From IMG/VR virus record IMGVR_UViG_2531839663_000008, positions 1 through 42,768 of that record: a DNA stretch of 42,768 nt; one strand, given 5' to 3'. The notes under the pieces were generated by a model. It was not told the origin of the DNA, made no database searches, and worked only from the letters and a program-made list of their open reading frames with translations. Positions 2,557 to 30,682 of the stretch are shown piece after piece. Source of the DNA: a virus. Lineage: Duplodnaviria > Heunggongvirae > Uroviricota > Caudoviricetes. Every line of letters begins with the position of its first letter. The first letter of the stretch is position 1. A program made the position numbers and the translations under genes.

Positions 2557-3617
2557 GCTGCGACCTCAAAGCTCTTTGCCGTAATAGCTTGGATTAGTCT
2601 CACCGAAGCAGCTTTTTGTGAAGCAACGCTGGCAATAACCGTCGCTCTATCTTTTTCAGTGCTGGCGCAGACACCGGACCAGGATGAAATGAGGAAGAAA
2701 TTCTCCAACTCACTCATAGTGGAATTATTTACTAACTCCTCAATCATCTGCACAATGATGTGTGCAGGGCGATGCCGTAGTAGTTCCTGCATTGCGTAGC
2801 CAAACGCATTGATCATCACCGCGTGGAACTGGATGTAATCCCGCTTATATTCAGCAGGCGTACAACCATGCCTAATTCCCTCGATGGCTGTTAGCTTGAG
2901 CCATGCCTCCCAAATGTCATAGATGTCACTAGTAGCAAGCTCATCCCCATTGACAGAGAATTTTGCAGTTGCATCACTCAGGGGTTTGAAGCTAATCCAG
3001 AGATCGCTTTTCGCCGGAACCACGTTGTGTTCAAAGTCTGTTATTTCTGAGAACACGGCATGGGATGACAAAAACGAAACCATATCTTGAGCAATTTTAT
3101 CCCTACCGTTATAGGCCATATTGATGGCCGCTGATGGCTTCGATACGTTGTTGTTGATGTCGGAAAAGAACTGCTGGCGCGTTTTGAGCGGCAGTTGGTG
3201 TGTCAGCATCATTGGGATGTGAATAGGCTCTCCGTAAGTGCGGCAGAACTCCGCAATGCCTGCGGCGCGATGCTGACCGTCAAACAGTTTAATCTCCGCA
3301 TCCATTGGGAATCGCGCAACACCCACATTCGTATTGCCAAACTCTTCGAACTCAATGAGTGAGTCGCAGTTTCCAACCAGCGGCGGGATGATGAACGGCT
3401 CTTTTTTCTCGTAAGCTGTTCGCAGATACTCATAAAACTTCTTCGCACGTGCTGGATTGAGTTCTCGCTGAGAACGCTCAAGCGTATTGCCGTGGTTATC
3501 TGATGCCAGAACGCGAGTTAGCGCGCGCGCTGGGACTGTCATCATCAACACAACCGTATTTCCCTGTAAGCCTCTTGATGCCGGGAATTCAAAGAAATAG
3601 TCACCAATTTTGCTCAT
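2553..3617 (-). CDS. DGQHR-motif protein (DndB-like, ParB/Srx superfamily)
   Basis: Literal FDGQHRAAG motif in the N-terminal third; start placed at second ATG, which has a GAGGA RBS about 9 nt upstream; stop overlaps the dam start by 4 nt. Confidence 0.6.
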   Translation of the reverse strand: MSKIGDYFFEFPASRGLQGNTVVLMMTVPARALTRVLASDNHGNTLERSQRELNPARAKKFYEYLRTAYEKKEPFIIPPLVGNCDSLIEFEEFGNTNVGVARFPMDAEIKLFDGQHRAAGIAEFCRTYGEPIHIPMMLTHQLPLKTRQQFFSDINNNVSKPSAAINMAYNGRDKIAQDMVSFLSSHAVFSEITDFEHNVVPAKSDLWISFKPLSDATAKFSVNGDELATSDIYDIWEAWLKLTAIEGIRHGCTPAEYKRDYIQFHAVMINAFGYAMQELLRHRPAHIIVQMIEELVNNSTMSELENFFLISSWSGVCASTEKDRATVIASVASQKAASVRLIQAITAKSFEVAA

Positions 3618-3694
3618 GCTTCCGTCCTCTAACATTTAATTCTTCAACATGGGATGGCGCACCGCGCCAACCCTGATGTCGTCGTGAGCGTGAG

Positions 3695-4123
3695 TCATAG
3701 GATGGACTCCATTTCGTCGATGTAGAGGCCCTGAGCAATCAGGCGGCTACGGCGGGCGGCACGGGCTATGCACTCCTGCCGTCTACCTTCCTGCGATTGC
3801 TCAATGGCGCGCCGGGTGAACAGGCGCGATTTGCCCTGCGGCGTCACAACCTTCGGCTTCGTGACCAGGTCGAAAGTCCGGTCGCAGATGCCGTCCCCGT
3901 TGATCCACTTTTCCGACTCAACGATCTGCGCTATCTGTCCGGAGCCGCGGGTAATACCGTTGGCTACCCGGTTAAACTCGATGAGCGTTACGCCAAACTT
4001 CTCAGCGATTTCGCTGCCGGTTACCGGGCGGCCGCGCGTCTGAATCATCCAGATAACGCGCTCACGAAGGCCGGAGAATTGCCCGGTGCGCCCTGGCCTG
4101 CGGTAAAATGGTGTGCGTTTCAT
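3695..4123 (-). CDS. Hypothetical phage protein (basic, possible HTH)
   Basis: 142-aa ORF in the leftward operon; 4-nt overlap with the downstream exonuclease gene. Confidence 0.45.
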   Translation of the reverse strand: MKRTPFYRRPGRTGQFSGLRERVIWMIQTRGRPVTGSEIAEKFGVTLIEFNRVANGITRGSGQIAQIVESEKWINGDGICDRTFDLVTKPKVVTPQGKSRLFTRRAIEQSQEGRRQECIARAARRSRLIAQGLYIDEMESIL

Positions 4124-4737
4124 GCTGCACGCTCTGTGATTTTCTGAATTTCCGATTCCAGATCTGCAAGGAAGCTCTTAACCTCAGATTCGATTTCGCG
4201 CGCCAGCTCTTCATCGAAATGAATCCGCTTCTTGAAATAGGCGAGGTCAGGCGGCAGGCGATCATCGAAACTAACGAAATCACACCATTTCCGCCCGGTG
4301 CACATCATCTGTGCATGCATTTGCAGCATGTACTGGCGCTTTGGCTCACCAGTTTTCAGCGTTTCAAGATGGGTCCAGGTGTTGGGGCATTTGATTTCGA
4401 TAAGCCCGTCGTCGTTGACAAGTCCGTCCGGGCTGGCTGCGAATCCGGGTATGGTTGGGTGATCGATGAGCCCAACTTCAGTGATTGCCGCATTGAACTC
4501 ATTCAGCGCGTACATTTCGCGTGCCACTGGCTCAAGTTCAGTGCCGCGCATCATCGCGGCATTCGAAAACCCTTCCTCCAGCTTCCCGGTCAGCCGTTGG
4601 CAAATCAGCTCGGCCATGTAGTTCTGGCGGCTGGTGGAGTAGCCCGACTTAGTCCGGGCCATGACATCAGCCAGGCGACTGGCTGTGACCTTGCCGCAGC
4701 GCGCAGCAAACCATTCAGGGGTGCGTTGCTCTATCAT
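4120..4737 (-). CDS. YqaJ-like viral recombination exonuclease
   Basis: 205 aa; N-terminal RTPEWFAAR and PD-(D/E)xK-type GLIEIKCP motif; adjacent to and overlapping recT. Confidence 0.8.
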   Translation of the reverse strand: MIEQRTPEWFAARCGKVTASRLADVMARTKSGYSTSRQNYMAELICQRLTGKLEEGFSNAAMMRGTELEPVAREMYALNEFNAAITEVGLIDHPTIPGFAASPDGLVNDDGLIEIKCPNTWTHLETLKTGEPKRQYMLQMHAQMMCTGRKWCDFVSFDDRLPPDLAYFKKRIHFDEELAREIESEVKSFLADLESEIQKITERAA

Positions 4738-16997: not shown

Positions 16998-17687
16998 ATG
17001 AACAGTCAGCAACTGGAATACGTACGTCAGCAGCTCATTGTGGCGACCGCAGACCTCAGCGGGGCGACGAAAGGGCAGCTGGTAGCTTTCGCCGAGAACG
17101 CGCAATTCACCGCGACGGCGCGGAGTCGGGGCCGGAAAAAGGTATTCGACAAGGATAAGCAGCGCATGGTCAATCCTGACGGCCAGCCGATGAGCGGCAA
17201 CCAGTCCCGCGCTAAGGGCTCGTCTATCGCGCTGGTGGGCCCGGTAGAGTACGGGACCGCATCGTGGCGCCGCGCTGTTCTGTCGCTTGAAGACCATCAG
17301 AAAGCGTGGCTGCTATGGAACTATAGCGAGAACGTGCGCTGGTGCTATCAGGTGGAAATCACTCAATGGGCGTGGGCAGAGTTCCGGGAGCAGCTCGGCG
17401 CGAAGAAGGTGGCCGGCAAAACGATGGAGCGCCTGAAGAAGCTTGTCTGGCTCGCGGCTCAGGACGTGAAAGCAGAGCTGGCAGGGCGTGAGACGTACGA
17501 ATATCAGGCGCTGGCGTCGCTGGTTGGCGTAACGCCAAAAAACTGGTCAGAGACCTTTACTGACCGCTGGGTTGAGATGCGCAGCATCTTCCTGCGACTG
17601 GATAGCGGGGCTTTATTGCAGGTTACGCGATCACGTTCACAACAAAAGGCGACAAATTTAGACTCAAGTCTTGCAAAACTGGATTGA
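16998..17687 (+). CDS. Late-gene antiterminator, Q-like (by position; family unverified)
   Basis: 229-aa ORF directly upstream of a strong sigma70-like promoter plus terminators and the lysis cassette. Confidence 0.5.
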   Translation: MNSQQLEYVRQQLIVATADLSGATKGQLVAFAENAQFTATARSRGRKKVFDKDKQRMVNPDGQPMSGNQSRAKGSSIALVGPVEYGTASWRRAVLSLEDHQKAWLLWNYSENVRWCYQVEITQWAWAEFREQLGAKKVAGKTMERLKKLVWLAAQDVKAELAGRETYEYQALASLVGVTPKNWSETFTDRWVEMRSIFLRLDSGALLQVTRSRSQQKATNLDSSLAKLD

Positions 17688-17752: not shown

Positions 17753-17784
17753 AGCCTCGCCATCGTGCGGGGCTTTTTTATTTG
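17753..17784 (+). terminator. Intrinsic terminator (tR'-like, first)
   Basis: GCCUCGC / GCGGGGC stem with one G-U pair, followed by TTTTTTATTTG. Confidence 0.6.
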
Positions 17785-17857
17785 CGGTACGCAGCACACA
17801 GAACCCACTACCTGGGACCCTTCGGCCAGAGAGCCGACATTGCCTTACCCTCACATT

Positions 17858-17884
17858 GCCAGCCTGTCGCTGGCTTTTTTATTT
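17858..17884 (+). terminator. Intrinsic terminator (second, tandem)
   Basis: GCCAGC-CTGTC-GCTGGC hairpin followed by TTTTTTATTTG. Confidence 0.6.
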
Positions 17885-17956
17885 GCGATGTCCGGTCGTT
17901 GTTTCCTGGCATCCTTCCACTCTACACAAACAGCACCCCGTTCTTTCGGAGGTGAT

Positions 17957-18274
17957 ATGGCAAAGCGTATGAATGACGACCATAAAATTGTAGGCCTGTC
18001 CTGGTTAGTCCTGCTCGGCATTGCATGCTGGGGCGGTTTAGTTCGCTACCTGATCGACGTAAAGCAGAATAAAGCGACATGGAGCTGGATAAACGCGCTG
18101 GCACAGATCGCTGTCTCCGGCTTTACCGGTTTGATTGGCGGGTTGATAAGCGTGGAGAGTGGGTTGAGTTTTCACATGATCCTTGTCACGTCCGGCATTA
18201 GCGGGGCGATGGGTTCAGTGGCTCTGACCTATTTCTGGGAACGCTTGACGGGGATGAAGAATGCAAACCAGTGA
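17957..18274 (+). CDS. Holin
   Basis: 105 aa starting MAKRMNDDHK; hydrophobic TM segments; overlaps the lysozyme start; first gene of the lysis cassette. Confidence 0.65.
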   Translation: MAKRMNDDHKIVGLSWLVLLGIACWGGLVRYLIDVKQNKATWSWINALAQIAVSGFTGLIGGLISVESGLSFHMILVTSGISGAMGSVALTYFWERLTGMKNANQ

Positions 18275-18701
18275 TAAAGGCATTGCCCTGATCAAAGAGT
18301 TCGAAGGTTGCAAGCTCACTGCCTATCAGGACAGCGTCGGCGTTTGGACGATCGGTTATGGCTGGACTCAGCCCGTCGACGGGAAACCAATCCGTGCCGG
18401 GATGACAATTAAGCAGGAAACGGCAGAACGCCTGCTGAAGACAGGAATGGTCAGTTACGAAAGTGACGTGTCACGACTGGTTAAAGTTGGCCTGACTCAG
18501 GGGCAATTCGATGCCCTGGTGTCGTTCACGTATAACCTCGGTGCGCGGTCATTGTCGACATCGACTCTCCTGCGAAAACTCAACGCCGGAGATTACGCTG
18601 GTGCAGCCGATGAGTTCCTGCGCTGGAATAAAGCTGGTGGGAAGGTGCTGAATGGGCTGACACGTCGGCGGGAGGCAGAGCGAGCTCTGTTCCTGTCATG
18701 A
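18261..18701 (+). CDS. Phage lysozyme (endolysin, T4-lysozyme-like fold)
   Basis: 146 aa; [10 protein letters not shown] ... TIGYGWT ... [15 protein letters not shown] pattern of phage lysozymes. Confidence 0.85.
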
Positions 18702-19168
18702 TTAGCGCACTGGTTAAGCGTTACTGGCTGCAGTTGCTGGTGCTGGCGTTAATCGGCGCACTGGCTTTCTTCGTGAACCACTACCGCGACAACGCCATCA
18801 CTTACAGAGACCAGCGCGATAAGGCCACTGAGAAACTCCTCCTGGCGACCGCCACCATTAAAGACATGCAGACCCGCCAGCGTGATGTCGCTGCACTGGA
18901 TGCCAAATACACCGGAGAACTGGCTGATGCCAAAGCCACTATCGATCAGCTTGAGCGTGATGTTGCTGCTGGCAAACGTCGGTTGCAGCTCAACGCAACC
19001 TGTCCCGCGAACGGAACGGCCAGCGCCACCGGCCTGGATGATGCAACCGGCCCCCGACTTACTGACGCCGCTGAACGGGATTATTTCACCCTCAGAGAGC
19101 GAATTGAAACCATCACCAGCCAACTGACAGGCCTGCAAGCGTATGTGCGTGAGCAGTGCATTAGATGA
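18698..19168 (+). CDS. Rz: Rz-like inner-membrane spanin
   Basis: 156 aa; N-terminal TM helix then coiled-coil; directly after the endolysin gene with 4-nt overlap. Confidence 0.75.
18927..19127 (+). CDS. Rz1: Rz1-like outer-membrane lipoprotein spanin, embedded in the +1 frame of Rz
   Basis: Signal/lipobox [10 protein letters not shown] followed by Pro-rich [26 protein letters not shown]; start codon uncertain (18927 or 18960). Confidence 0.65.
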
Positions 19169-19278: not shown

Positions 19279-19629
19279 ATGTCCATGAAGCGTATTACCG
19301 TTTTGCTTTCTGCGCTCCTGCTTGCAGGATGCACTAACTATTCTGCACAGCAACCTTATCGCTCTCCCAATGGAGAGCAGATGCTCATTAGTGCCAATAT
19401 GCCAAACGGAATACTGAAGTTGTGGGTTAATGATGTCCTGGTTGTTGATGATTCATTCCTTAACCAGGATAAAAGTCTTTCGGCCGCTTTCGCCCAAAGC
19501 TACACGAACGTATACAACGGCGACTATAAGGGTAAAAAAGTTATGGCCCGCTGTAAGTTTTCCCGTGACGCAAAGGAATGTGATGTCTTCGTTGACGGCG
19601 AGTATGCAGCCAACCTCTTCCTGAGATAA
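19279..19629 (+). CDS. Lipoprotein of unknown function (moron)
   Basis: Signal peptide with lipobox LLAGC; preceded by a strongly AT-rich intergenic region; occupies the slot where lambda carries bor. Confidence 0.55.
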   Translation: MSMKRITVLLSALLLAGCTNYSAQQPYRSPNGEQMLISANMPNGILKLWVNDVLVVDDSFLNQDKSLSAAFAQSYTNVYNGDYKGKKVMARCKFSRDAKECDVFVDGEYAANLFLR

Positions 19630-19711
19630 ATAGCCAGGCATTACAGCAGGCATTCACTGAGTGCCTGTGATAATGCTAAAGTGATAACTCACACTAATGG
19701 TGGGGGTTTTC

Positions 19712-20008
19712 ATGAAGCACTTAATTCACTCTTTCATTTTGAAAACGGACGATGGGTCTACCATCAAGTACGAGATTTACTGTAAAAACCATGAGCTTGG
19801 TTACCACAAAAAAGTACCTGAAGGCTCCTGTCAGATCATTTCATCAAAGCTTGACCCTGATGATCGAGATTTTAAAGTGACTGACATCAACCTAAACATT
19901 GATGCCCTGTACAAAGCCAATCAGCCAGCCCCTAATACTTGGTACTCAGATGGACAGGATCGTGTAAGCCTGGATATGGTTATCAGCTATCTCGCTAAGT
20001 TGAAGTAA
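19712..20008 (+). CDS. Hypothetical small protein (moron)
   Basis: Start at MKHLIH with GGTGGGGG RBS; AT-rich; followed by terminator. Confidence 0.4.
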   Translation: MKHLIHSFILKTDDGSTIKYEIYCKNHELGYHKKVPEGSCQIISSKLDPDDRDFKVTDINLNIDALYKANQPAPNTWYSDGQDRVSLDMVISYLAKLK

Positions 20009-20029
20009 CTAATGTTCATCAGTGTCTTA

Positions 20030-20056
20030 AGCCTCGCTAATGCGGGGCTTTTTTAA
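20030..20056 (+). terminator. Intrinsic terminator; near-copy of the hairpin at 17753
   Basis: AGCCTCGC-TAAT-GCGGGGC hairpin followed by TTTTTTAA. Confidence 0.55.
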
Positions 20057-20082
20057 TGGAGCCAAACCTCAGGAAGATAACC

Positions 20083-20715
20083 ATGGCGAATGAAGATGAT
20101 CTCCGCCCGCTGCCATTATCCGCATTCGTCGGAGAGTTCGCTCCGTACATTCGGTTAGCTCCTGCTGATGGTGTATGGCAATGGGTGCAGGAGCAAATCA
20201 TCGCCGATTCCGGTCATCTGCATAACCCTGACCACGCACACCTCGCTGATGCTGATATAGCGTTCTTGTGGGCGGCAACCGCATTCACCAAAAAAGGGCG
20301 AGCCGTTCTCGGTCAGGCCGAAGAGGTAATGATGCGTGCTGGTGGATGGCAAAAAGCCCGGATGGAACAGCAGATGCATGAGTGGTTCGGACATAAACCG
20401 GACTTCATTATCACGCTGGCCGGTGACTTCTGCCTGCAATGCTCTGACCTGGAATTCTGCGCGCTGGTAGAGCATGAGCTTTACCACATAGCGCAGGAGA
20501 CCGATGAATTCGGCTCCCCGAAGTTCTACCGCGATTCCGGATTGCCAAAGCTATACCTACGCGGCCACGACGTTGAAGAGTTCGTTGGCGTGGTTCGGCG
20601 ATACGGAGCGAGTGCCGACGTGCAAGAGCTGGTGGACGCAGCAAATCAACCTGCAGAGGTGGCAAAACTTAACATCGCCAGAGCGTGCGGGACGTGCATG
20701 CTGAAACTGGCTTAA
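20083..20715 (+). CDS. HExxH-motif protein (putative zinc metallopeptidase-like), unknown function
   Basis: Start at MANEDDL with AGGAAG RBS; VEHELYHIAQ motif plus several Cys; lies between lysis genes and terminase. Confidence 0.45.
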   Translation: MANEDDLRPLPLSAFVGEFAPYIRLAPADGVWQWVQEQIIADSGHLHNPDHAHLADADIAFLWAATAFTKKGRAVLGQAEEVMMRAGGWQKARMEQQMHEWFGHKPDFIITLAGDFCLQCSDLEFCALVEHELYHIAQETDEFGSPKFYRDSGLPKLYLRGHDVEEFVGVVRRYGASADVQELVDAANQPAEVAKLNIARACGTCMLKLA

Positions 20716-20746
20716 ATACTGGACTGTATAAGACGAATGGTGATTT

Positions 20747-21226
20747 ATGGCTGCATTAAAACCTGATGTGAAAGCCTTCATCATTCAGTCGCTTGCGTGC
20801 TATGACACGCCATCGCAGGTGGTCGAGGCTGTCCAAAAAGAATTCGGGATCAAGATCACCCGCCAGCAGGCTGAATCTCACGACCCCACGAAGGCCAGCG
20901 GTAAGACGCTCGCAAAAAAGTGGGTCGAACTTTTCAACGCAACTCGCGAACGCTTCCAGAATGAAATTTCCGATATCCCGATCGCCAATAAAGCCTATCG
21001 GTTGCGTGTCCTGCAAAGGATGTCGATGACCGCTGAGAATATGAAAAATATCGGTATGACGGCCCAACTCCTCGAACAGGCCGCGAAAGAAGTTGGCGAG
21101 GCATATAGCAACAAGCAGAAGCTTGAACATTCAGGCCCGAATGGTGAGCCCATACAGCATAATCACACAGTAAGCGCGGAGGATCTGACTGATGAGCAGC
21201 TCGCCGCAATTATCGCTGGTAAGTAA
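20747..21226 (+). CDS. Terminase small subunit (putative)
   Basis: 159-aa ORF immediately upstream of and overlapping the terminase large subunit. Confidence 0.55.
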   Translation: MAALKPDVKAFIIQSLACYDTPSQVVEAVQKEFGIKITRQQAESHDPTKASGKTLAKKWVELFNATRERFQNEISDIPIANKAYRLRVLQRMSMTAENMKNIGMTAQLLEQAAKEVGEAYSNKQKLEHSGPNGEPIQHNHTVSAEDLTDEQLAAIIAGK

Positions 21227-22610
21227 GCAGGAAGCAGCGGCAGAGTTACTCAAGCGGCGCAACGCACGGGCCAGCCTTCACGATTTCATTCGATACATCA
21301 ACCCTGATTACATCGTCAGCGACTTTTCGCGAAAGGTCTGCTCAGAGCTGGACACCTTTCTGGAGGATATGGCCGCCGGAAAGAGGCCGATACTGATTCT
21401 CGGCGCGCCGCCGCAACACGGTAAATCGGATATCGTCTCGCGCTATCTGCCTGCGTATTTCTTCGGTAAATACCCGGAAATGCGCGTGGGCGCGCTTTCG
21501 TACTCTGCTGACCTGGCTGGAGATATGAACGCTGATGTGCAGCGGATTATGTCCACGCCGGAATACCGCAACATATTCCCCGGTGCCTGGCTGTGCAACA
21601 AGCCCGCTGATGGCGTGGCGGTGAAGCGCAACACTGATGAGTTCGGCATTGCCAACCACAAAGGGACGTATGTCTGTGCTGGCGTGGGTGGCCCACTGAC
21701 GGGTAAGAAAATAGATCTCGGTATCATCGATGACCCGATAAAGAACTCGAAAGAAGCGCTGTCGCCGACCACCAAAAAATCCATCTGGAACTGGTACGTC
21801 TCCACGTTCAAAACGCGTCTGTCGAAAAACAGCGGCGAAATCATCATGGCGACCCGCTGGGCGACGGATGACTTATCCGGGCGTGTGGTGGAAATCACGC
21901 CGCGCGCCAAGGTGCTGGCGTTCCCTGCTATCAATGAGCAGGGCGAAGCGCTGGTGCCTGAACTGCACCCGAAAGAAAAGCTGCTCGAAACCAAAATCAT
22001 CCTCGGGGATTACTTCTGGTCTGCGATGTATCAGCAGTCGCCAAAACAGGCCGGCGGCTCAATCTTCAAAGACGAGTGGATCAAGTACTACCTCCCGAAA
22101 GACTTGCCGACCAACTTCGACATCGTCGTCCATAGCTGGGATATGACCTTCAAAGACAGCGAGGGGACCGACTACGTTGTCGGCCAGGTATGGGGCAAAA
22201 AGGGCGCAAACGCCTACCTACTTCACCAGGTGCGCGCGCGCATGAGCTTCACCGCAACGCTGAAAGCCGTTAAACGCATGGCCGACGAATACCCCAAAGG
22301 CTTACGTAAGCTGGTGGAGGACAAAGCCAACGGCCCGGCGGTTATTGATTCACTGAAAAGCACCGTTGCGGGGCTCGTTCCCGTTGAACCGGACGGCAGC
22401 AAAGTAGCCCGCGCGCATGCGATCACCGCTGTATGGGAAGCGGGTAACGTTTTCCTTCCCCATAAAGACATCGCTCCGTGGATCACCGAGACGGTTGAGG
22501 AAATTACCACGTTCCCTGTTGGCGCGAACGATGACGTTGTCGATGCAATGACGCAGGGGTTACGCGATTTGTATCAGAGAAAAACACTCAGCCCACTGGA
22601 CATCATGTAA
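21192..22610 (+). CDS. Terminase large subunit
   Basis: 472 aa; Walker-A-like LGAPPQHGKS near N-terminus; followed by portal gene. Confidence 0.85.
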   Translation: MSSSPQLSLVSKQEAAAELLKRRNARASLHDFIRYINPDYIVSDFSRKVCSELDTFLEDMAAGKRPILILGAPPQHGKSDIVSRYLPAYFFGKYPEMRVGALSYSADLAGDMNADVQRIMSTPEYRNIFPGAWLCNKPADGVAVKRNTDEFGIANHKGTYVCAGVGGPLTGKKIDLGIIDDPIKNSKEALSPTTKKSIWNWYVSTFKTRLSKNSGEIIMATRWATDDLSGRVVEITPRAKVLAFPAINEQGEALVPELHPKEKLLETKIILGDYFWSAMYQQSPKQAGGSIFKDEWIKYYLPKDLPTNFDIVVHSWDMTFKDSEGTDYVVGQVWGKKGANAYLLHQVRARMSFTATLKAVKRMADEYPKGLRKLVEDKANGPAVIDSLKSTVAGLVPVEPDGSKVARAHAITAVWEAGNVFLPHKDIAPWITETVEEITTFPVGANDDVVDAMTQGLRDLYQRKTLSPLDIM

Positions 22611-23953
22611 TGACGAGAAAAAATATCGTTGGTCGTCTGAATGATGGCCTGGTTAGCTTAATGACCTCGCTCGGCGAGAAGATCGGAGCGGTACGGTACA
22701 GCAGCACAAGGCCAGATGTGCCGGATAAAGAACTTCTCGCGATGTATAAAAAATCGTGGGTGGTGAAAAAGTACATCAACAAAACCGCTGACGACATGCT
22801 GAAGTTGCCCCGTAAATTTTCGGGCGATGTCGATAGCTCCATAACCAAGCGCATCGCAGACGCTGAAAAAGAACTGAAATTAAACTCAGTCTTTCACAGC
22901 GCGCTGGGATGGGCCTCTCTGCTGGGTGACTCGCTAATCGTGGCTATCACTGATTGTGCCGATGATCAGATTGCCTTGCCGCTCAATTTGCAGAGCGAAG
23001 ATATCGTTAAATTCCTGGTGTTTCGAAAAGGTGAGTACACGCCGGACAGTAAAGTCATTACCGACATACGTTCGGACTGTTTTGGTGAGCCGCTGACGTA
23101 TCAACTTGATGTCGGGACAAAGCAACTCAGGTTTCACCACTCCCGCTGCTGCCGGACAAAACTGGGTAATCACAGTATTAAGGATCGCGCGAAGTTTGGC
23201 ACGTCAGACCTTCAGGCGCCCTACGAGCACATCAAAACGTTCGACACTGCAATCCTGAGCACCGGCGACACCATTCAGGAAGCGAATGTCGATGTTCTGT
23301 TTATCCCCGGCATGAATAACCAGATCGCAGCGGGTCAGGAAGGACAGGTGCGCGAGTACGCCAGGGTGATGAAGGACACCAAATCTTCAACCGGGATGTT
23401 ATTGATTGATGCTGGTGATACTCAGGCGCAGGGGCGCTATGAGCAAAAAAACGCGCAATTTACCGGACTGTCGGATGTGATCAGCAAAATGGCGATTGTA
23501 CTGGCCGGGGCGCTGGACAGACCGATAACGGTTCTGTTTGGTGAGTCGGCCAGCGGGTTCAGCAGCGGCGAGGAAGATAACAAATCCTATTACGAGACGA
23601 TTAACGGCCTGCAGGAGTCCCGTCTTCGCCCTATGCAGGATTTCGCCGATCAGTTCACGCTGGACAAACTCGCCATTACGGAAAGCCTTACCTACGAATA
23701 TCCGACAATCGACAGCATTAACGAAGCAGACGAAGCTAACCGGTTTAGCCAGTATGCGACGGGCTTCAATACGCTGGTAACGTCGTCAATTCTGACGGAA
23801 GAAGTCGCAATCAGAGAGATGATTAACCGCGGCGTGCTGAAGACGGTCACCGAAGAAGAAATTAAGGGGATCGTCAGCGCTGGCGGTGATTCTGGTTCAT
23901 GGGGGAGTTATGGAACTCAAACTGCTGCTGGAGCGCCAGCAGGGGCGGCGTAA
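22610..23953 (+). CDS. Portal protein
   Basis: 447-aa ORF between terminase and head-morphogenesis genes. Confidence 0.7.
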   Translation: MTRKNIVGRLNDGLVSLMTSLGEKIGAVRYSSTRPDVPDKELLAMYKKSWVVKKYINKTADDMLKLPRKFSGDVDSSITKRIADAEKELKLNSVFHSALGWASLLGDSLIVAITDCADDQIALPLNLQSEDIVKFLVFRKGEYTPDSKVITDIRSDCFGEPLTYQLDVGTKQLRFHHSRCCRTKLGNHSIKDRAKFGTSDLQAPYEHIKTFDTAILSTGDTIQEANVDVLFIPGMNNQIAAGQEGQVREYARVMKDTKSSTGMLLIDAGDTQAQGRYEQKNAQFTGLSDVISKMAIVLAGALDRPITVLFGESASGFSSGEEDNKSYYETINGLQESRLRPMQDFADQFTLDKLAITESLTYEYPTIDSINEADEANRFSQYATGFNTLVTSSILTEEVAIREMINRGVLKTVTEEEIKGIVSAGGDSGSWGSYGTQTAAGAPAGAA

Positions 23954-24761
23954 GCCTCGCCGCCGGAGGATGCGCCCCCCAACACCGAGTAAGCGCGCAG
24001 AGGTCTGGTACCGGGACAGGCTGACGGATTTCATCGACAGCATGGTCCTGACGTTTGTTAACGAGCTGGGCAAGCCTGCGCTCACCGATGCTCCTGATAG
24101 CACACCTCTCTCGATTACGACGCGTCTTGCCGCTGTCATGCAGCGTCTGGCGAGCATTTCAATTCAGGAGGTCGCCGCCCGACTCTCTGCCGGATTCGTT
24201 ACGCGGGCAAACCTGCAGAACAAAGAGCAGACGCAGCGCACTTTCTCTCAGGCTTTTGGGATTGATCTGACCGGGATGCTCGGCGATGGCGCGATAAAGC
24301 CAGAAATGGAAAAGGCGGTTAATGACAACGTTGACCTGATCACCTCCATCCATACCGACTTTATCCACGATATCGGCGCGGCGGTTTTCGAGAACATGAA
24401 AGACGGTGGCCGACATGAAAACCTCATTGACCTGATTAAGGTGCGTGGGGAGGTCACCCGCAATCGTGCAAGGTTCATCGCTCGTGACCAGACATCAAAA
24501 CTGAACGCAGACCTGACTGAAGCTCGCAATGTGGCGCTTGGACTTGACCTGTATGAGTGGGGAGGTACTGGCGACGAACGTGAACGGGAAAACCATTTCG
24601 TTCTGAACGGCATGCTTTGCAAATATTCGGATCCGACAGTTTATTCAGACGACGGCGGTAAAACGTGGAAGAAACGTTCCGCCATCGGAGCATTTATCGG
24701 TAAGCCAGGAGAAGACTATCAATGCCGGTGCCTGGCTCTCCCTTACGTCTCATGGGATTAA
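23910..24761 (+). CDS. Head morphogenesis protein (Mu gpF / SPP1 gp7-like)
   Basis: About 283 aa; conserved packaging-module position after portal. Confidence 0.6.
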   Translation: MELKLLLERQQGRRKPRRRRMRPPTPSKRAEVWYRDRLTDFIDSMVLTFVNELGKPALTDAPDSTPLSITTRLAAVMQRLASISIQEVAARLSAGFVTRANLQNKEQTQRTFSQAFGIDLTGMLGDGAIKPEMEKAVNDNVDLITSIHTDFIHDIGAAVFENMKDGGRHENLIDLIKVRGEVTRNRARFIARDQTSKLNADLTEARNVALGLDLYEWGGTGDERERENHFVLNGMLCKYSDPTVYSDDGGKTWKKRSAIGAFIGKPGEDYQCRCLALPYVSWD

Positions 24762-24764
24762 TCA

Positions 24765-25910
24765 ATGAAATGGAAACGAACACCGCAGGGGTATGTGATT
24801 ACCACTGCGACGATCACCCGCTCCGGACCGATTGAATATTACGGTCACGAGCTGGGGCTCACTGGCAGCGATGCCAACAAAAAAATCACTGTTGTCCGCA
24901 CTCTCGACGAATTATCAAAACCTGAAACACTCGCTTCATTCAATGGCCTCCCGTTCACCATAACGCACCCCGACGACGGGGAAGTCACCGCCACTGACCA
25001 CAAAGACAAAGCATCCGGGCATATAGCCAATACCCGTATCGAGGGCGGCGAGGTGGTCTGCGACGTTTATCTGACGGATGCCGTTGCAATTAAGACGCTG
25101 GAAGAAACGGGGATACGTGAAGTATCCGTTGGATATGAACCTGCTGAACTCGAGGAAAGAGGCGGGAAGTTTTACCACATCAACATTCGCGGCAATCACG
25201 TCGCGGGCGTGGCAGAGGGGCGCTACGGGCCTCAGTGTAAGTTAAACGATAAAAAAGGTAAGCCGATGTTCAAAACATTAACTGACGCCCTGAGTTTCCT
25301 GAAGGGCAAAAAACTGAAGGATGCGGACGGTGCAGCGCTAACTCCTGACGAACTGGTCGGCATGATCGCCGCGCTGGAAAAAGCACTGGAAGAACTCCAG
25401 GGGCAAGGGACTGACGAGGCGACGGCAAAGGCTCAGGAAGTGTTGGCGCAGCTCGCAGACCTGAAAAAGCAACTGGAAGGCATGACGGGGGCACCATCGC
25501 CGAACGATGAAGATCCTGCCGCTGGTGGTGACGACAAGGATGCGAAAATCACTGCGCTGGAAACCGAAAACGCCGATCTGAAAGCGAAAATTAAAACGCT
25601 GGAAGAAGAACTGGAACAGCTGAAATCCGGCAATGAAACCAGCACCACGCTGGCAGACGCGAAAGCCCGTTTCCCTAAAGTCAGCTTCAATGATGCCAAA
25701 TCAGCGCGTGACGTGCGCGCCGCCGTACTGGTGAGCACTAAAGCATTTAACGATGCTGAGGTCAAAGTAATGACTGACAGCGAAGTCCGCGCGGCTTATG
25801 CAGCCATTCAGGCCACCTCGAAGCCACGCAGTGAAATCGGTGCTCATCTGTTTAACGACTCCGCGAATAAAAGCACTAAAACCGCAACTCAACGCCTTGG
25901 GGGTAAATAA
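24765..25910 (+). CDS. Putative head scaffolding/maturation protein
   Basis: 381 aa with Glu/Lys-rich coiled-coil centre typical of scaffold proteins; precedes capsid genes. Confidence 0.5.
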   Translation: MKWKRTPQGYVITTATITRSGPIEYYGHELGLTGSDANKKITVVRTLDELSKPETLASFNGLPFTITHPDDGEVTATDHKDKASGHIANTRIEGGEVVCDVYLTDAVAIKTLEETGIREVSVGYEPAELEERGGKFYHINIRGNHVAGVAEGRYGPQCKLNDKKGKPMFKTLTDALSFLKGKKLKDADGAALTPDELVGMIAALEKALEELQGQGTDEATAKAQEVLAQLADLKKQLEGMTGAPSPNDEDPAAGGDDKDAKITALETENADLKAKIKTLEEELEQLKSGNETSTTLADAKARFPKVSFNDAKSARDVRAAVLVSTKAFNDAEVKVMTDSEVRAAYAAIQATSKPRSEIGAHLFNDSANKSTKTATQRLGGK

Positions 25911-26407: not shown

Positions 26408-27376
26408 ATGCCTATGGAATCAGCAGATTTCGAAGAAGTGCTGCAGGAAGCGCTAACTGAGCGTGATATGCAGTTGCAAGAAAAAGAACTTCCAGAGATC
26501 AACATCGGTGAAGCCCTCCCGGTTAAAGACGGCCTGGATTTTTCTCTGGAATATGTGGATTTCGGCGTGTCAGAAGTGGTCGGGTCGGTTAAAGACGGCA
26601 TCATTGGTAACAAAACCAACAGCCTGAAAACCATTGATAGTGAAATCGAATGGCTGAAAGCGCCTGTTGGCCAGTGGGCTAAAGCTGCAACCTGGACTCA
26701 GCAGGAACTGGAGAAGATCGCACGTCTGAACATCAACCTGCAGACCAAAAAGCAGGATGATCTGTATGCCAACGCCCTCGCTACCATTCAGTATGCCGGT
26801 TACGTCGGCCATCGCGGCGTTAAAGGTCAGGAAGGGTTGCTGACAGGGACGAAAGTACAGCTTATCACCGACACGTCAGGCAAAACCATTGCCGAAATGA
26901 CCTCTGATGGGTTCGTGAAACTTGTGCTGGATGCTTATAACGCGGCATGGCGCAAATCCGGCTATCGTATCCAGCCAACGCATATCGCCATGGACGCCAG
27001 CGACTTTATGCTCGCCATGCAGAAATTCGACCCGAATCCGATTGTTGTGGGTACTGACCTGCTCCCGATTGCGGCGATGGATCGCATTATGGCGGCGCTG
27101 CGTAAGGCTTCTGGTAATGAGTCTTTCAACATTACTTTCGTGAAAGTCCCGAGCAATTACGCGGTAGGTATCAAATCGGGTAAAACCCGCCTGGCAATCT
27201 ACACCTACGAAGCCGATTACATCGAAATGGAAGTGCATATGCCAGAACTGCTGGCAGCACGACAGCGTGATCTGCTGACCTATGAGTGTGGTTATCGCTC
27301 TGCCTTCGGTGGCGCGATGTGGAAACAGCCGCAGTCCGCGGTGTATGTGGATTACAAATCCTCTCCGGCAGAGTAA
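26408..27376 (+). CDS. Major capsid protein
   Basis: 322-aa ORF after scaffold/decoration genes. Confidence 0.65.
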   Translation: MPMESADFEEVLQEALTERDMQLQEKELPEINIGEALPVKDGLDFSLEYVDFGVSEVVGSVKDGIIGNKTNSLKTIDSEIEWLKAPVGQWAKAATWTQQELEKIARLNINLQTKKQDDLYANALATIQYAGYVGHRGVKGQEGLLTGTKVQLITDTSGKTIAEMTSDGFVKLVLDAYNAAWRKSGYRIQPTHIAMDASDFMLAMQKFDPNPIVVGTDLLPIAAMDRIMAALRKASGNESFNITFVKVPSNYAVGIKSGKTRLAIYTYEADYIEMEVHMPELLAARQRDLLTYECGYRSAFGGAMWKQPQSAVYVDYKSSPAE

Positions 27377-29179: not shown

Positions 29180-30682
29180 ATGTCGGCATCAATTAATAAC
29201 GTCATTAATGTGACGCTTCTCGAAGAGGGACGGGCGGCGGCGCGAGATAACATCAACGTTTGCGCAATTCTGACCAGCCAGACGGGGGTATTGAGCACTG
29301 CTGAACGCTGGCGTTCATACAAAAGCGCATCTGCTGTCGAACAGGACTGGGGGGCTTCTTCAGTCACCGCAGCTTTTGCGAATGTGTTTTTCGGGACCAG
29401 TCCTAACCCGGTATCCGCGGGCGGCACGCTGATCGTCGGTTACTGGAACGCTGCCGGGGAAACGCTGCCTGCGACCAGCGGTGTACTGCGTGGCGGTGAG
29501 ATTTCTCAGGCAGTCGTACTGCCAGCGTTACGCGAGAAGTCTGACTGGTCATTCAGTATTGAGATTGACGGCACTAAGCACGATGTGACTGAAATTAATG
29601 GCATGACGGCGACGACACTGGCAGATGTCATCGCCCAAATCCAGGCGAAAATTACGCCAGATGTTGCATCGGTTGTTTTTGATGGCAGCCGTATAGCGAT
29701 TACCAACAAATCGACAGGGACTAACTCTGTTGTTGGTTATCCGACAGTGCTGGATGGTGGCTCTTTTATTGGCGATCTGCTGGCGGTTGCGGAGGGTTCC
29801 GGCGCTTCGCTGGTAAACGGTAGCGCATCAACTGAGATTTCACCGGAAACACAACTGGAATCTCTCAGCAAACTCAAAGCGCAGGTCAACGTAAAAGGCG
29901 CGGCCTTCATCGACAAAATTCTCGATGCGCAGGTGCCGTTGATCGCTTCATGGGCTAAAGCGAACGCGGTAATCGTGTATGAGACATTTACCGGTTCGGC
30001 AGCTCTGGAAGTTGATCCGACTAACCCGGCATGGGCGGTAACACTCGCCAGCCAGAGTAATTTCCGCATGCTCTACAGCAAAACAGGCAACCGGAAATTT
30101 GGTGTTAGCTATATGGCGCGCACGCATACCGTTAATTTCAACGGAGAACGCACTGCAATCACTTTGCACCTCAAAACGATGAACGTGCCGGCCGAAAGTT
30201 ATGAGCAGACGGAGATCGACAAAGCGAAGCGTGTAGGTCTCGACATCTACACCACGATTAAAGACGTTCCCTGCGTGCTGTCGAGCGGTGCTAATGATTT
30301 TGTCGACAACGTCTATAACCTGATGGCCTACGTTGACGCAGTGCAGACGGATTCCTTCAACCTCCTTAAAACTACGCCGACTAAAGTCCCACAAACCTAT
30401 TATGGCGTTGATCAGTTAGAGGACTGTGTAGAGAAAACCACGCATGGGTTTGTGAAGGCTGGGGTGTTCAATCCGGGTACCTGGACGCTGCCTGACTTCT
30501 TCGGGGATCGGGATATGTTTCTGCGAAATATCGAGCAAAACGGGTATTACGTGCTGGCCGGTGACCTGAAAGACCAGTCAACCGCAGACAGGCAGGAACG
30601 CAAATCCCCGGTTGTTCAGGTAGCAGTGAAGAATGCTGGTGCTGTTCACAGTGCCGATATCATCATCAATTTCAATAAATAA
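29180..30682 (+). CDS. Tail sheath protein (putative)
   Basis: 500 aa immediately before tube, chaperone and tape-measure genes. Confidence 0.6.
   Translation: MSASINNVINVTLLEEGRAAARDNINVCAILTSQTGVLSTAERWRSYKSASAVEQDWGASSVTAAFANVFFGTSPNPVSAGGTLIVGYWNAAGETLPATSGVLRGGEISQAVVLPALREKSDWSFSIEIDGTKHDVTEINGMTATTLADVIAQIQAKITPDVASVVFDGSRIAITNKSTGTNSVVGYPTVLDGGSFIGDLLAVAEGSGASLVNGSASTEISPETQLESLSKLKAQVNVKGAAFIDKILDAQVPLIASWAKANAVIVYETFTGSAALEVDPTNPAWAVTLASQSNFRMLYSKTGNRKFGVSYMARTHTVNFNGERTAITLHLKTMNVPAESYEQTEIDKAKRVGLDIYTTIKDVPCVLSSGANDFVDNVYNLMAYVDAVQTDSFNLLKTTPTKVPQTYYGVDQLEDCVEKTTHGFVKAGVFNPGTWTLPDFFGDRDMFLRNIEQNGYYVLAGDLKDQSTADRQERKSPVVQVAVKNAGAVHSADIIINFNK

Follow-up and report, generated by a model that had tools for sequence, protein, structure and literature searches.

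What does a gene for an HExxH protein do immediately upstream of the terminase genes of a tailed phage? The question is raised by positions 20083–20715 (+) of the IMG/VR virus record IMGVR_UViG_2531839663_000008, a stretch of 42,768 nucleotides (nt) that was analysed at its full length and is referred to here as the window. A first-pass annotation had described at this place a 210-residue open reading frame (ORF) with the motif VEHELYHIAQ and several cysteines, lying between the terminator of a moron cassette and the gene of the small terminase subunit (TerS). Both statements hold: HELYH occupies residues 131–135, the protein has five cysteines (C117, C120, C126, C202 and C205), a terminator-like hairpin is found at 20029–20050, and a DUF2280 gene, whose TerS role is presumed, lies at 20747–21226. 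We show below that the ORF belongs to Pfam family PF18894 and that its gene heads the DNA-packaging block in thousands of prophages, and we tentatively propose that the protein takes part in the initiation of packaging.

The first-pass annotation could not place the protein in a known family, and this point is now settled. The ORF matches PF18894, ‘Putative phage metallopeptidase’ (PhageMetallopep), with an E value of 2.3e-43 and a score of 147.9 bits against a cut-off of 23.7, the match covering model positions 1–134 of 134 and residues 32–188 of the protein. Its nearest relatives, from Citrobacter and Enterobacter, are 93% identical and carry the NCBI name ‘putative metallopeptidase’; the copies in Escherichia coli prophages are given the same name by PGAP and adjoin a ‘DUF2280 domain-containing protein’. 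In a collection clustered at 90% identity, 5282 homologous proteins were found at E ≤ 1e-3, forming 804 clusters at 50% identity. The protein is thus almost certainly an ordinary member of PF18894, small and acidic, with a minimal zincin core and family-specific N- and C-terminal segments. Its family identity is already known and curated, under a predicted name. No NCBIfam model was matched by the ORF, and the PADLOC defence models gave a single 14-bit match, which is meaningless. The one paper that we found to cite PF18894 (PMC12860723) deals with a Burkholderia phage and counts the gene among the accessory genes whose role is unknown.

The reading frame runs from ATG 20083 to TAA 20713–20715, as seen both in the ORF list and on the sequence, and its product begins MANEDDLRPLP and ends ACGTCMLKLA. 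An alternative in-frame ATG at 20056 would give 219 residues. We prefer the start at 20083, since a Shine–Dalgarno-like AGGAAG (20071–20076, +) is read 6 nt before it, whereas ATG 20056, which lacks a Shine–Dalgarno sequence, lies within the terminator's T-run, and since the closest homologues are also 210 residues long.

A second label circulates for the same family. The ORF matches PHROG 513, labelled ‘transposase’, at E 1e-97, and the PHROGs database files this group under ‘integration and excision’; the label is also found on NC_019522 (ZF40 gp39), HQ201308, KT968831, NC_031098, NC_041866 and NC_047861, as well as on ENT47670. The ZF40 genome paper treats gp39 as a transposase and speculates on Mu-like transposition (PMC3391216). 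We rejected this identity, because neither Pfam nor NCBIfam reveals a transposase catalytic domain, be it DDE/RNase H-like, HUH or that of a serine/tyrosine recombinase, and because the predicted fold is that of a zincin. The ‘transposase’ label of PHROG 513 and of the GenBank records is a misannotation, which probably stems from long homologues whose N-terminal extension, described below, weakly resembles HTH_Tnp_1.

Conservation was assessed on 614 unique family sequences aligned to the family hidden Markov model. The HExxH residues H131, E132 and H135 (codons 20473–20487, +), located on a predicted helix spanning residues 122–134, are conserved at 100, 100 and 99.8%, respectively; together with the number of homologues and clusters, this establishes that the ORF is not a chance reading frame. 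The motif is the presumed catalytic zinc site and would supply the general base. Downstream of it, the GHDVEEF motif contains H162, D163 and E165 (codons of H162-D163-V-E165 at 20566–20577, +; 99.8, 98.3 and 98.0%), at the start of a predicted helix (residues 164–174), and either H162 or E165 is a candidate third zinc ligand, placed as in gluzincins and minigluzincins. Two further clusters are nearly invariant: H51 and H53 of the NPDHxHL motif (codons of H51-A-H53 at 20233–20241, +; 99.3 and 98.8%) and the C-terminal C202-G203-T-C205 (20686–20697, +; 99.8, 99.3, 85.9 and 98.6%). The remaining cysteines, C117, C120 and C126, are not conserved (51–83%). Plausibly, H51/H53 and C202/C205 form a second, structural zinc site; alternatively, the cysteine tail might reach back to the catalytic metal. 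The short homologue of Bordetella phage PHB04 keeps the HxH and has no cysteine tail, which weakens the notion of a single C2H2 site built from these four residues. Altogether, the pattern of residue conservation argues for an active enzyme, and the invariant Glu of HExxH predicts a working hydrolase of the peptidase type.

The structure of the protein was also predicted. The AlphaFold2 model, built from a 141-sequence alignment, has a mean predicted local distance difference test (pLDDT) of 88.6 and a predicted template modelling score of 0.79; it is weak only in the last 20 residues, and the region of the C202–C205 tail is modelled at a pLDDT of 58–63. The model displays a β-sheet, a backing helix and an active-site helix bearing HExxH, that is, the arrangement of zincins of the minigluzincin type, so that the protein is predicted to consist of a minimal zincin core, roughly residues 55–175, flanked by family-specific N- and C-terminal additions. 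In structural comparisons, the highest values were obtained with projannalysin (4jix, 7.3), selecase (4qhf, 6.6) and the SprT domain of Spartan (6mdx, 6.3), followed by proabylysin (4jiu, 6.0), the predicted zincin 3e11 (5.8), YbeY (5.7), BepA (5.6), BlaR1 (5.3), Wss1 (4.9) and ArdC (3.8), each match aligning about 90 residues. The best matches are generic minimal zincins and not SprT. Foldseek gave no match with E<0.6 in the PDB, and in BFVD it recovered only Bacillus phage G gp231 and one further PF18894 member; PDB chains searched by sequence and by profile yielded nothing, zincins included.

These results divide the earlier suggestion of a zinc-metallopeptidase-like or SprT-like fold. The zincin part stands, on the evidence of both PF18894 and the AlphaFold2 model; membership of SprT or WLM does not, the protein being acidic and without a profile match to either. 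The profile and structure searches that had been called for (SprT, WLM, ImmA/IrrE) yielded PF18894 as the sole Pfam family at E ≤ 1 and minimal zincins as structural neighbours, with no SprT-like, WLM or ImmA/IrrE profile match, and no match to a packaging accessory protein devoid of a metal site turned up. PF18894 lies outside the SprT/WLM sequence families, and any ‘SprT-like’ character that it has is no more than the general likeness among minimal zincins. A repressor protease of the ImmA/IrrE kind was likewise rejected, as there is no PF06114 match and the gene sits in the late region between lysis and packaging genes. We also rejected a prohead protease: that slot is filled by the product of 24765–25910 (PHROG 530), and the PF18894 gene lies upstream of the TerS gene.

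Some homologues are longer than the window protein. Of the 150 representative clusters listed, roughly one in four contain proteins of 250–330 residues with a conserved N-terminal extension (e.g. P0133, P0137, P0140, P0147 and P0187, as well as the products of L224 4938–5858 and L210 4854–5675). The extensions measure 50–120 residues and are of at least two conserved types, both resembling a helix–turn–helix (HTH) below threshold. One class shows the pattern Y-S/T-x-E-x-K/R-x-x-A-L ... G-D ... A-A-K ... V-P ... L-x-x-W. This class gave sub-threshold matches to HTH_Tnp_1, HTH_8, MerR, HTH_28 and HTH_23, and to Cro-type and Fis-type HTH chains in the PDB (E 0.1–0.3). No long forms were found among isolated phages or IMG/VR loci when these were queried. 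The idea that the extension is small-terminase-like was rejected, hhalign against DUF2280 giving a probability of 1%: it is a different, weakly HTH-like domain. Nor do the long forms replace the small terminase, given that separate DUF2280 and large terminase (TerL) genes still come after them. Sub-threshold as they are, the HTH matches of some homologues may link the family to DNA.

The long forms bear on whether PF18894 could be a DNA-dependent protease of the SprT/Spartan kind, which would clear bound or cross-linked proteins from concatemeric phage DNA ahead of terminase translocation. The HTH-like extension in about a quarter of the representative clusters would fit such an activity, and an additional zinc module of the kind seen in SprT proteins could be built from H51/H53 with C202/C205. 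Nevertheless, the lack of any SprT-like or WLM profile match, the sub-threshold level of every HTH assignment and the generic character of the top structural matches speak against it, as does the short form itself, which has no recognisable DNA-binding module and whose pI of 5.0 and net charge of −12.7 (the family median pI is 5.3–5.5) are unfavourable to DNA binding, unlike the situation in DNA-binding SprT proteases. We thus consider this explanation very unlikely.

Gene order was examined at 245 informative loci: 80 IMG/VR loci near the window, 80 more distant ones, 80 from genomes and several from annotated phages. A DUF2280 ORF follows the PF18894 gene in 230 of the 245 loci, at a distance of up to 60 nt in 190 of them and of up to 1.2 kb in the other 40. 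The order is also found in isolated phages of Pectobacterium, Acinetobacter, Pseudomonas and Vibrio and in genomes of Armatimonadota and Alphaproteobacteria, the 80 genome loci further including Acidobacteriota and Bacteroidota, among other phyla. In the isolated-phage collection, matches to PF18894 and to DUF2280 are nearly equal in number genus by genus, with 62 and 62 in Acinetobacter, 44 and 44 in Pseudomonas, 8 and 8 in Vibrio and 7 and 7 in Burkholderia phages. The upstream side behaves differently: the neighbours there fall into 105 clusters across 159 loci and are unrelated between loci, which makes the PF18894 gene the start of the conserved block. Among the 14 loci without DUF2280, those read are L106, L118, L127, L131 and L088. 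The first three have another small-terminase-like ORF in the DUF2280 slot, followed in L106 and L118 by TerL and portal genes (L127 ends earlier), and in L131 TerL begins about 310 nt downstream of the PF18894 gene with nothing called between.

The 40 loci with a wider gap contain diverse inserts, including HNH homing endonucleases and small minus-strand ORFs. More specifically, L155, L159 and L219 (e.g. L219 5687–6196) carry HNH/NUMOD-like ORFs of 169–183 residues, starting MIEEW.P, exactly between the PF18894 and DUF2280 genes; inserts of this type are seen in some alphaproteobacterial prophages, and other loci have minus-strand ORFs there. Cos phages such as HK97 moreover have an HNH endonuclease gene (gp74 in HK97) adjoining those of their terminases, and the PF18894 gene occupies the same slot as these terminase-associated HNH genes. 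One might thus imagine PF18894 as a metal-dependent hydrolase other than a peptidase, for instance a nuclease that aids terminase cutting as a functional analogue of the HNH enzymes. The general-base Glu of HExxH, conserved at 100%, is however a peptidase signature (the YbeY motif is H-x3-H-x5-H, with no general-base Glu), and the protein is acidic; we regard a non-peptidase hydrolase as highly improbable.

Base composition agrees with the synteny. The PF18894 gene has a guanine plus cytosine (GC) content of 55%, like the packaging genes; the two ORFs directly upstream have 41–46%, and the flanks 52–58%. The gene shares its strand with the Q, holin, lysozyme and Rz genes, which precede it, and lies upstream of those for TerS, TerL, portal and MuF, a position that supports a late backbone gene. 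We rejected a moron or cargo identity on the grounds of backbone base composition and fixed synteny: the PF18894 gene is phage backbone and not a moron, and it does not look like cargo.

A closer link emerged from comparing pairwise protein identities over 90 loci, DUF2280 being split into an N-terminal domain (residues 1–105) and a C-terminal tail. The identity of PF18894 correlates with that of the DUF2280 N-domain with a Spearman rho of 0.79, with that of the C-tail at 0.48 and with that of TerL at 0.26. Where two PF18894 proteins share 65% identity or more, their TerS N-domains are always at least 40% identical (median 71%), and TerL is less than 25% identical in 63% of the same pairs; in the first set, TerL is detectably like that of the window in 17 of 82 loci. 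This pattern indicates that the co-travelling unit comprises PF18894, the spacer and the N-domain of the small terminase, the TerL-facing half being swapped.

The spacer that belongs to this unit has a structure of its own. In the window, its 31 nt (20716–20746, +), from the PF18894 stop to the DUF2280 gene, contain an imperfect tandem repeat, ACTGGAC (20718–20724) and ATAAGAC (20728–20734), 10 nt apart and followed by a G-rich Shine–Dalgarno sequence. Over 88 unique spacers, 51% hold an exact direct repeat of 5–10 nt, versus 11% of shuffled sequences. The offset is mostly 10–11 nt, and 8 nt in four; the unit varies by lineage, with both copies changing together (TGGAC/TGGAC, TATGAC/TATGAC, TTTATAC/TTTATAC, GACCAGACA/GACCAGACA). 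Where the unit has at least 6 nt, there are two adjacent copies only, starting 1–20 nt (mostly 1–5) past the stop codon, and for repeats of at least 5 nt the second copy most often ends 12–13 nt before the TerS start codon. Such repeats occur in enterobacterial, Acinetobacter, alphaproteobacterial, Acidobacteriota and Balneola loci (spacers of L004–L242). They may be protein-binding boxes, either of a pac site or of an operator.

These observations admit an explanation in which the protein is a bystander: a pac site in or near the PF18894 gene would drag it along with the DNA-binding domain of TerS, and its function would be unrelated to packaging. Co-inheritance with the N-terminal, DNA-recognition domain of TerS rather than with TerL is what this explanation expects, and so are the co-varying tandem repeats, one helical turn apart, right after the PF18894 stop. 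In phage SPP1, the pac site includes similar repeated boxes. A hitch-hiker, however, would not keep eleven putative metal-binding or catalytic residues at more than 98% across phyla, nor would it hold its position despite HNH and small-ORF insertions before TerS. We judge that cis linkage by itself is decidedly unlikely.

Our preferred reading, for which we would claim rather less than an even chance, is that PF18894 is a late-expressed zinc-dependent peptidase accessory to packaging initiation. The protein would be made late from the Q-antiterminated transcript, whose synthesis has to continue past the terminator at 20029–20050. As the product of the first gene of the DNA-packaging block, it would act with the DUF2280 small terminase at or before the initiation of packaging, and it would most likely cut or trim a protein partner. 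This partner could be the small terminase itself or a protein occupying the site where packaging starts. In this scheme, zinc binding, proteolysis, the substrate and the effect on packaging are all predicted properties. A bolder version, which we think doubtful, makes PF18894 the unrecognised third component of a widespread module for the initiation of headful packaging, alongside the tandem-repeat spacer and the DUF2280 DNA-binding domain. As a zinc protease, it would either activate or remodel the small terminase or free the pac region of bound proteins, and the repeats would be the cognate recognition boxes.

Several points weigh against a packaging role. We know of no packaging system that needs a metallopeptidase, and our literature search, which had subscription journals outside its coverage, found annotation-level mentions of PF18894 members and no experimental study of any. 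The linkage to the small-terminase N-domain could reflect a nearby cis-acting packaging site instead of protein function. In phage PHB04 (L088, a 94-kb Bordetella phage), TerL lies about 2.8 kb downstream of the gene for the short PF18894 homologue, whose neighbours are small and unrelated genes. The variable inserts of alphaproteobacterial prophages imply that tight translational coupling between PF18894 and DUF2280 is not general. Finally, 181 Salinibacter ruber phages have DUF2280 and no detectable PF18894, so that a DUF2280-type small terminase can work without it. In these phages the pairing is broken, a 172-residue multi-pass membrane protein being encoded directly upstream of the DUF2280 gene, which is 36% identical to that of the window and is followed by a large ORF (e.g. 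Salinibacter phage 1_25, L086, OR896199, region 3432–4480).

The Salinibacter phages, which retain DUF2280 and dispense with PF18894 as they might with an accessory function, also lend some credit to a host-directed or counter-defence protease. Such an enzyme, late or virion-carried, would cleave for example an immune sensor of terminase or portal, or a satellite packaging hijacker, and would sit beside the terminase genes only as a protector of the packaging step. The conserved catalytic residues are compatible with it, and the acidity of the protein (pI 5.0) recalls many decoy and anti-defence proteins. Yet genes of this sort are usually variable cargo of early or moron regions, whereas PF18894 has backbone GC, keeps its place in 230 of 245 loci and is conserved in sequence across phyla; it matches no defence-related model, and late expression would be ill-timed against early-acting defences. 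On balance, we take a host-directed or counter-defence function to be unlikely.

The surroundings of the gene in the window, all on the + strand, are those of a phage or prophage late region. The Q antiterminator (16998–17687) is followed by holin (17765–18274), lysozyme (18261–18701) and Rz (18698–19168) genes. The peptide product of ORF 18882–19127, in another frame inside Rz, is rich in proline, has a lipobox-like LLANVGC and looks by eye like an Rz1 o-spanin. Between Rz and the terminator lie the two low-GC ORFs, 19279–19629 and 19697–20008, which match no family in Pfam, PHROG or PADLOC; the first starts MSMKRITVLLSALLLAGC, a lipoprotein-type signal with a lipobox, and the pair is a typical moron cassette. 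The low-GC stretch is closed by the terminator found by the scan, hairpin plus T-run, at 20029–20056. On the other side of the PF18894 coding sequence (20083–20715, stop included), the 159-residue DUF2280 protein (20747–21226; Pfam PF10045, E 4.8e-51) is the presumed small terminase. Some GenBank records name DUF2280 ‘terminase small subunit’ and PHROGs lists it as of unknown function; the common label derives only from position and size, and neither sequence nor profile searches found a solved relative. Its gene overlaps the start of TerL (21192–22610; Pfam Terminase_6N/6C, PHROG 38) by 35 nt. Then come the portal (22610–23953), a MuF-like head morphogenesis protein (23886–24761), the head maturation protease (24765–25910; PHROG 530, E 3.8e-70), the major head protein (26408–27376) and the tail sheath (29180–30682).

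What the analysis adds to the family label is the gene order upstream of the small terminase, the co-inheritance and the backbone-like GC content. PF18894 has more than 5000 members, conserved catalytic residues and a near-fixed place heading the packaging block across Proteobacteria, Acidobacteriota, Armatimonadota and others. Metallopeptidases are, to our knowledge, absent from textbook packaging systems; if PF18894 does act in packaging initiation, it would constitute a new enzymatic step in a well-studied process. In any case, the analysis corrects a propagated ‘transposase’ annotation.

Compared with PF18894 at large, the window protein is a typical full-length, high-scoring member that shares the HExxH and the prophage setting and shows no difference; as a routine member of a curated family, its gene needs no new category. 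The minigluzincins (4jix, 4qhf, 4jiu) share 9–14% sequence identity with it and no profile match. They are archaeal cellular proteins and not products of phage packaging-block genes, and PF18894 differs from them by about 55 N-terminal and 35 C-terminal residues that contain conserved His and Cys of their own. From SprT-like proteins, Spartan and Wss1, it is set apart by the absence of sequence-family membership, by being acidic instead of basic and by a short form that has no DNA-binding domain. The likeness to HNH enzymes of the HK97 gp74 type is positional only, in that a small metal-dependent enzyme is encoded beside the small-terminase gene: HNH endonucleases are ββα-metal nucleases, whereas PF18894 is a predicted zincin, unrelated in fold and motif and with no indication of nuclease activity.

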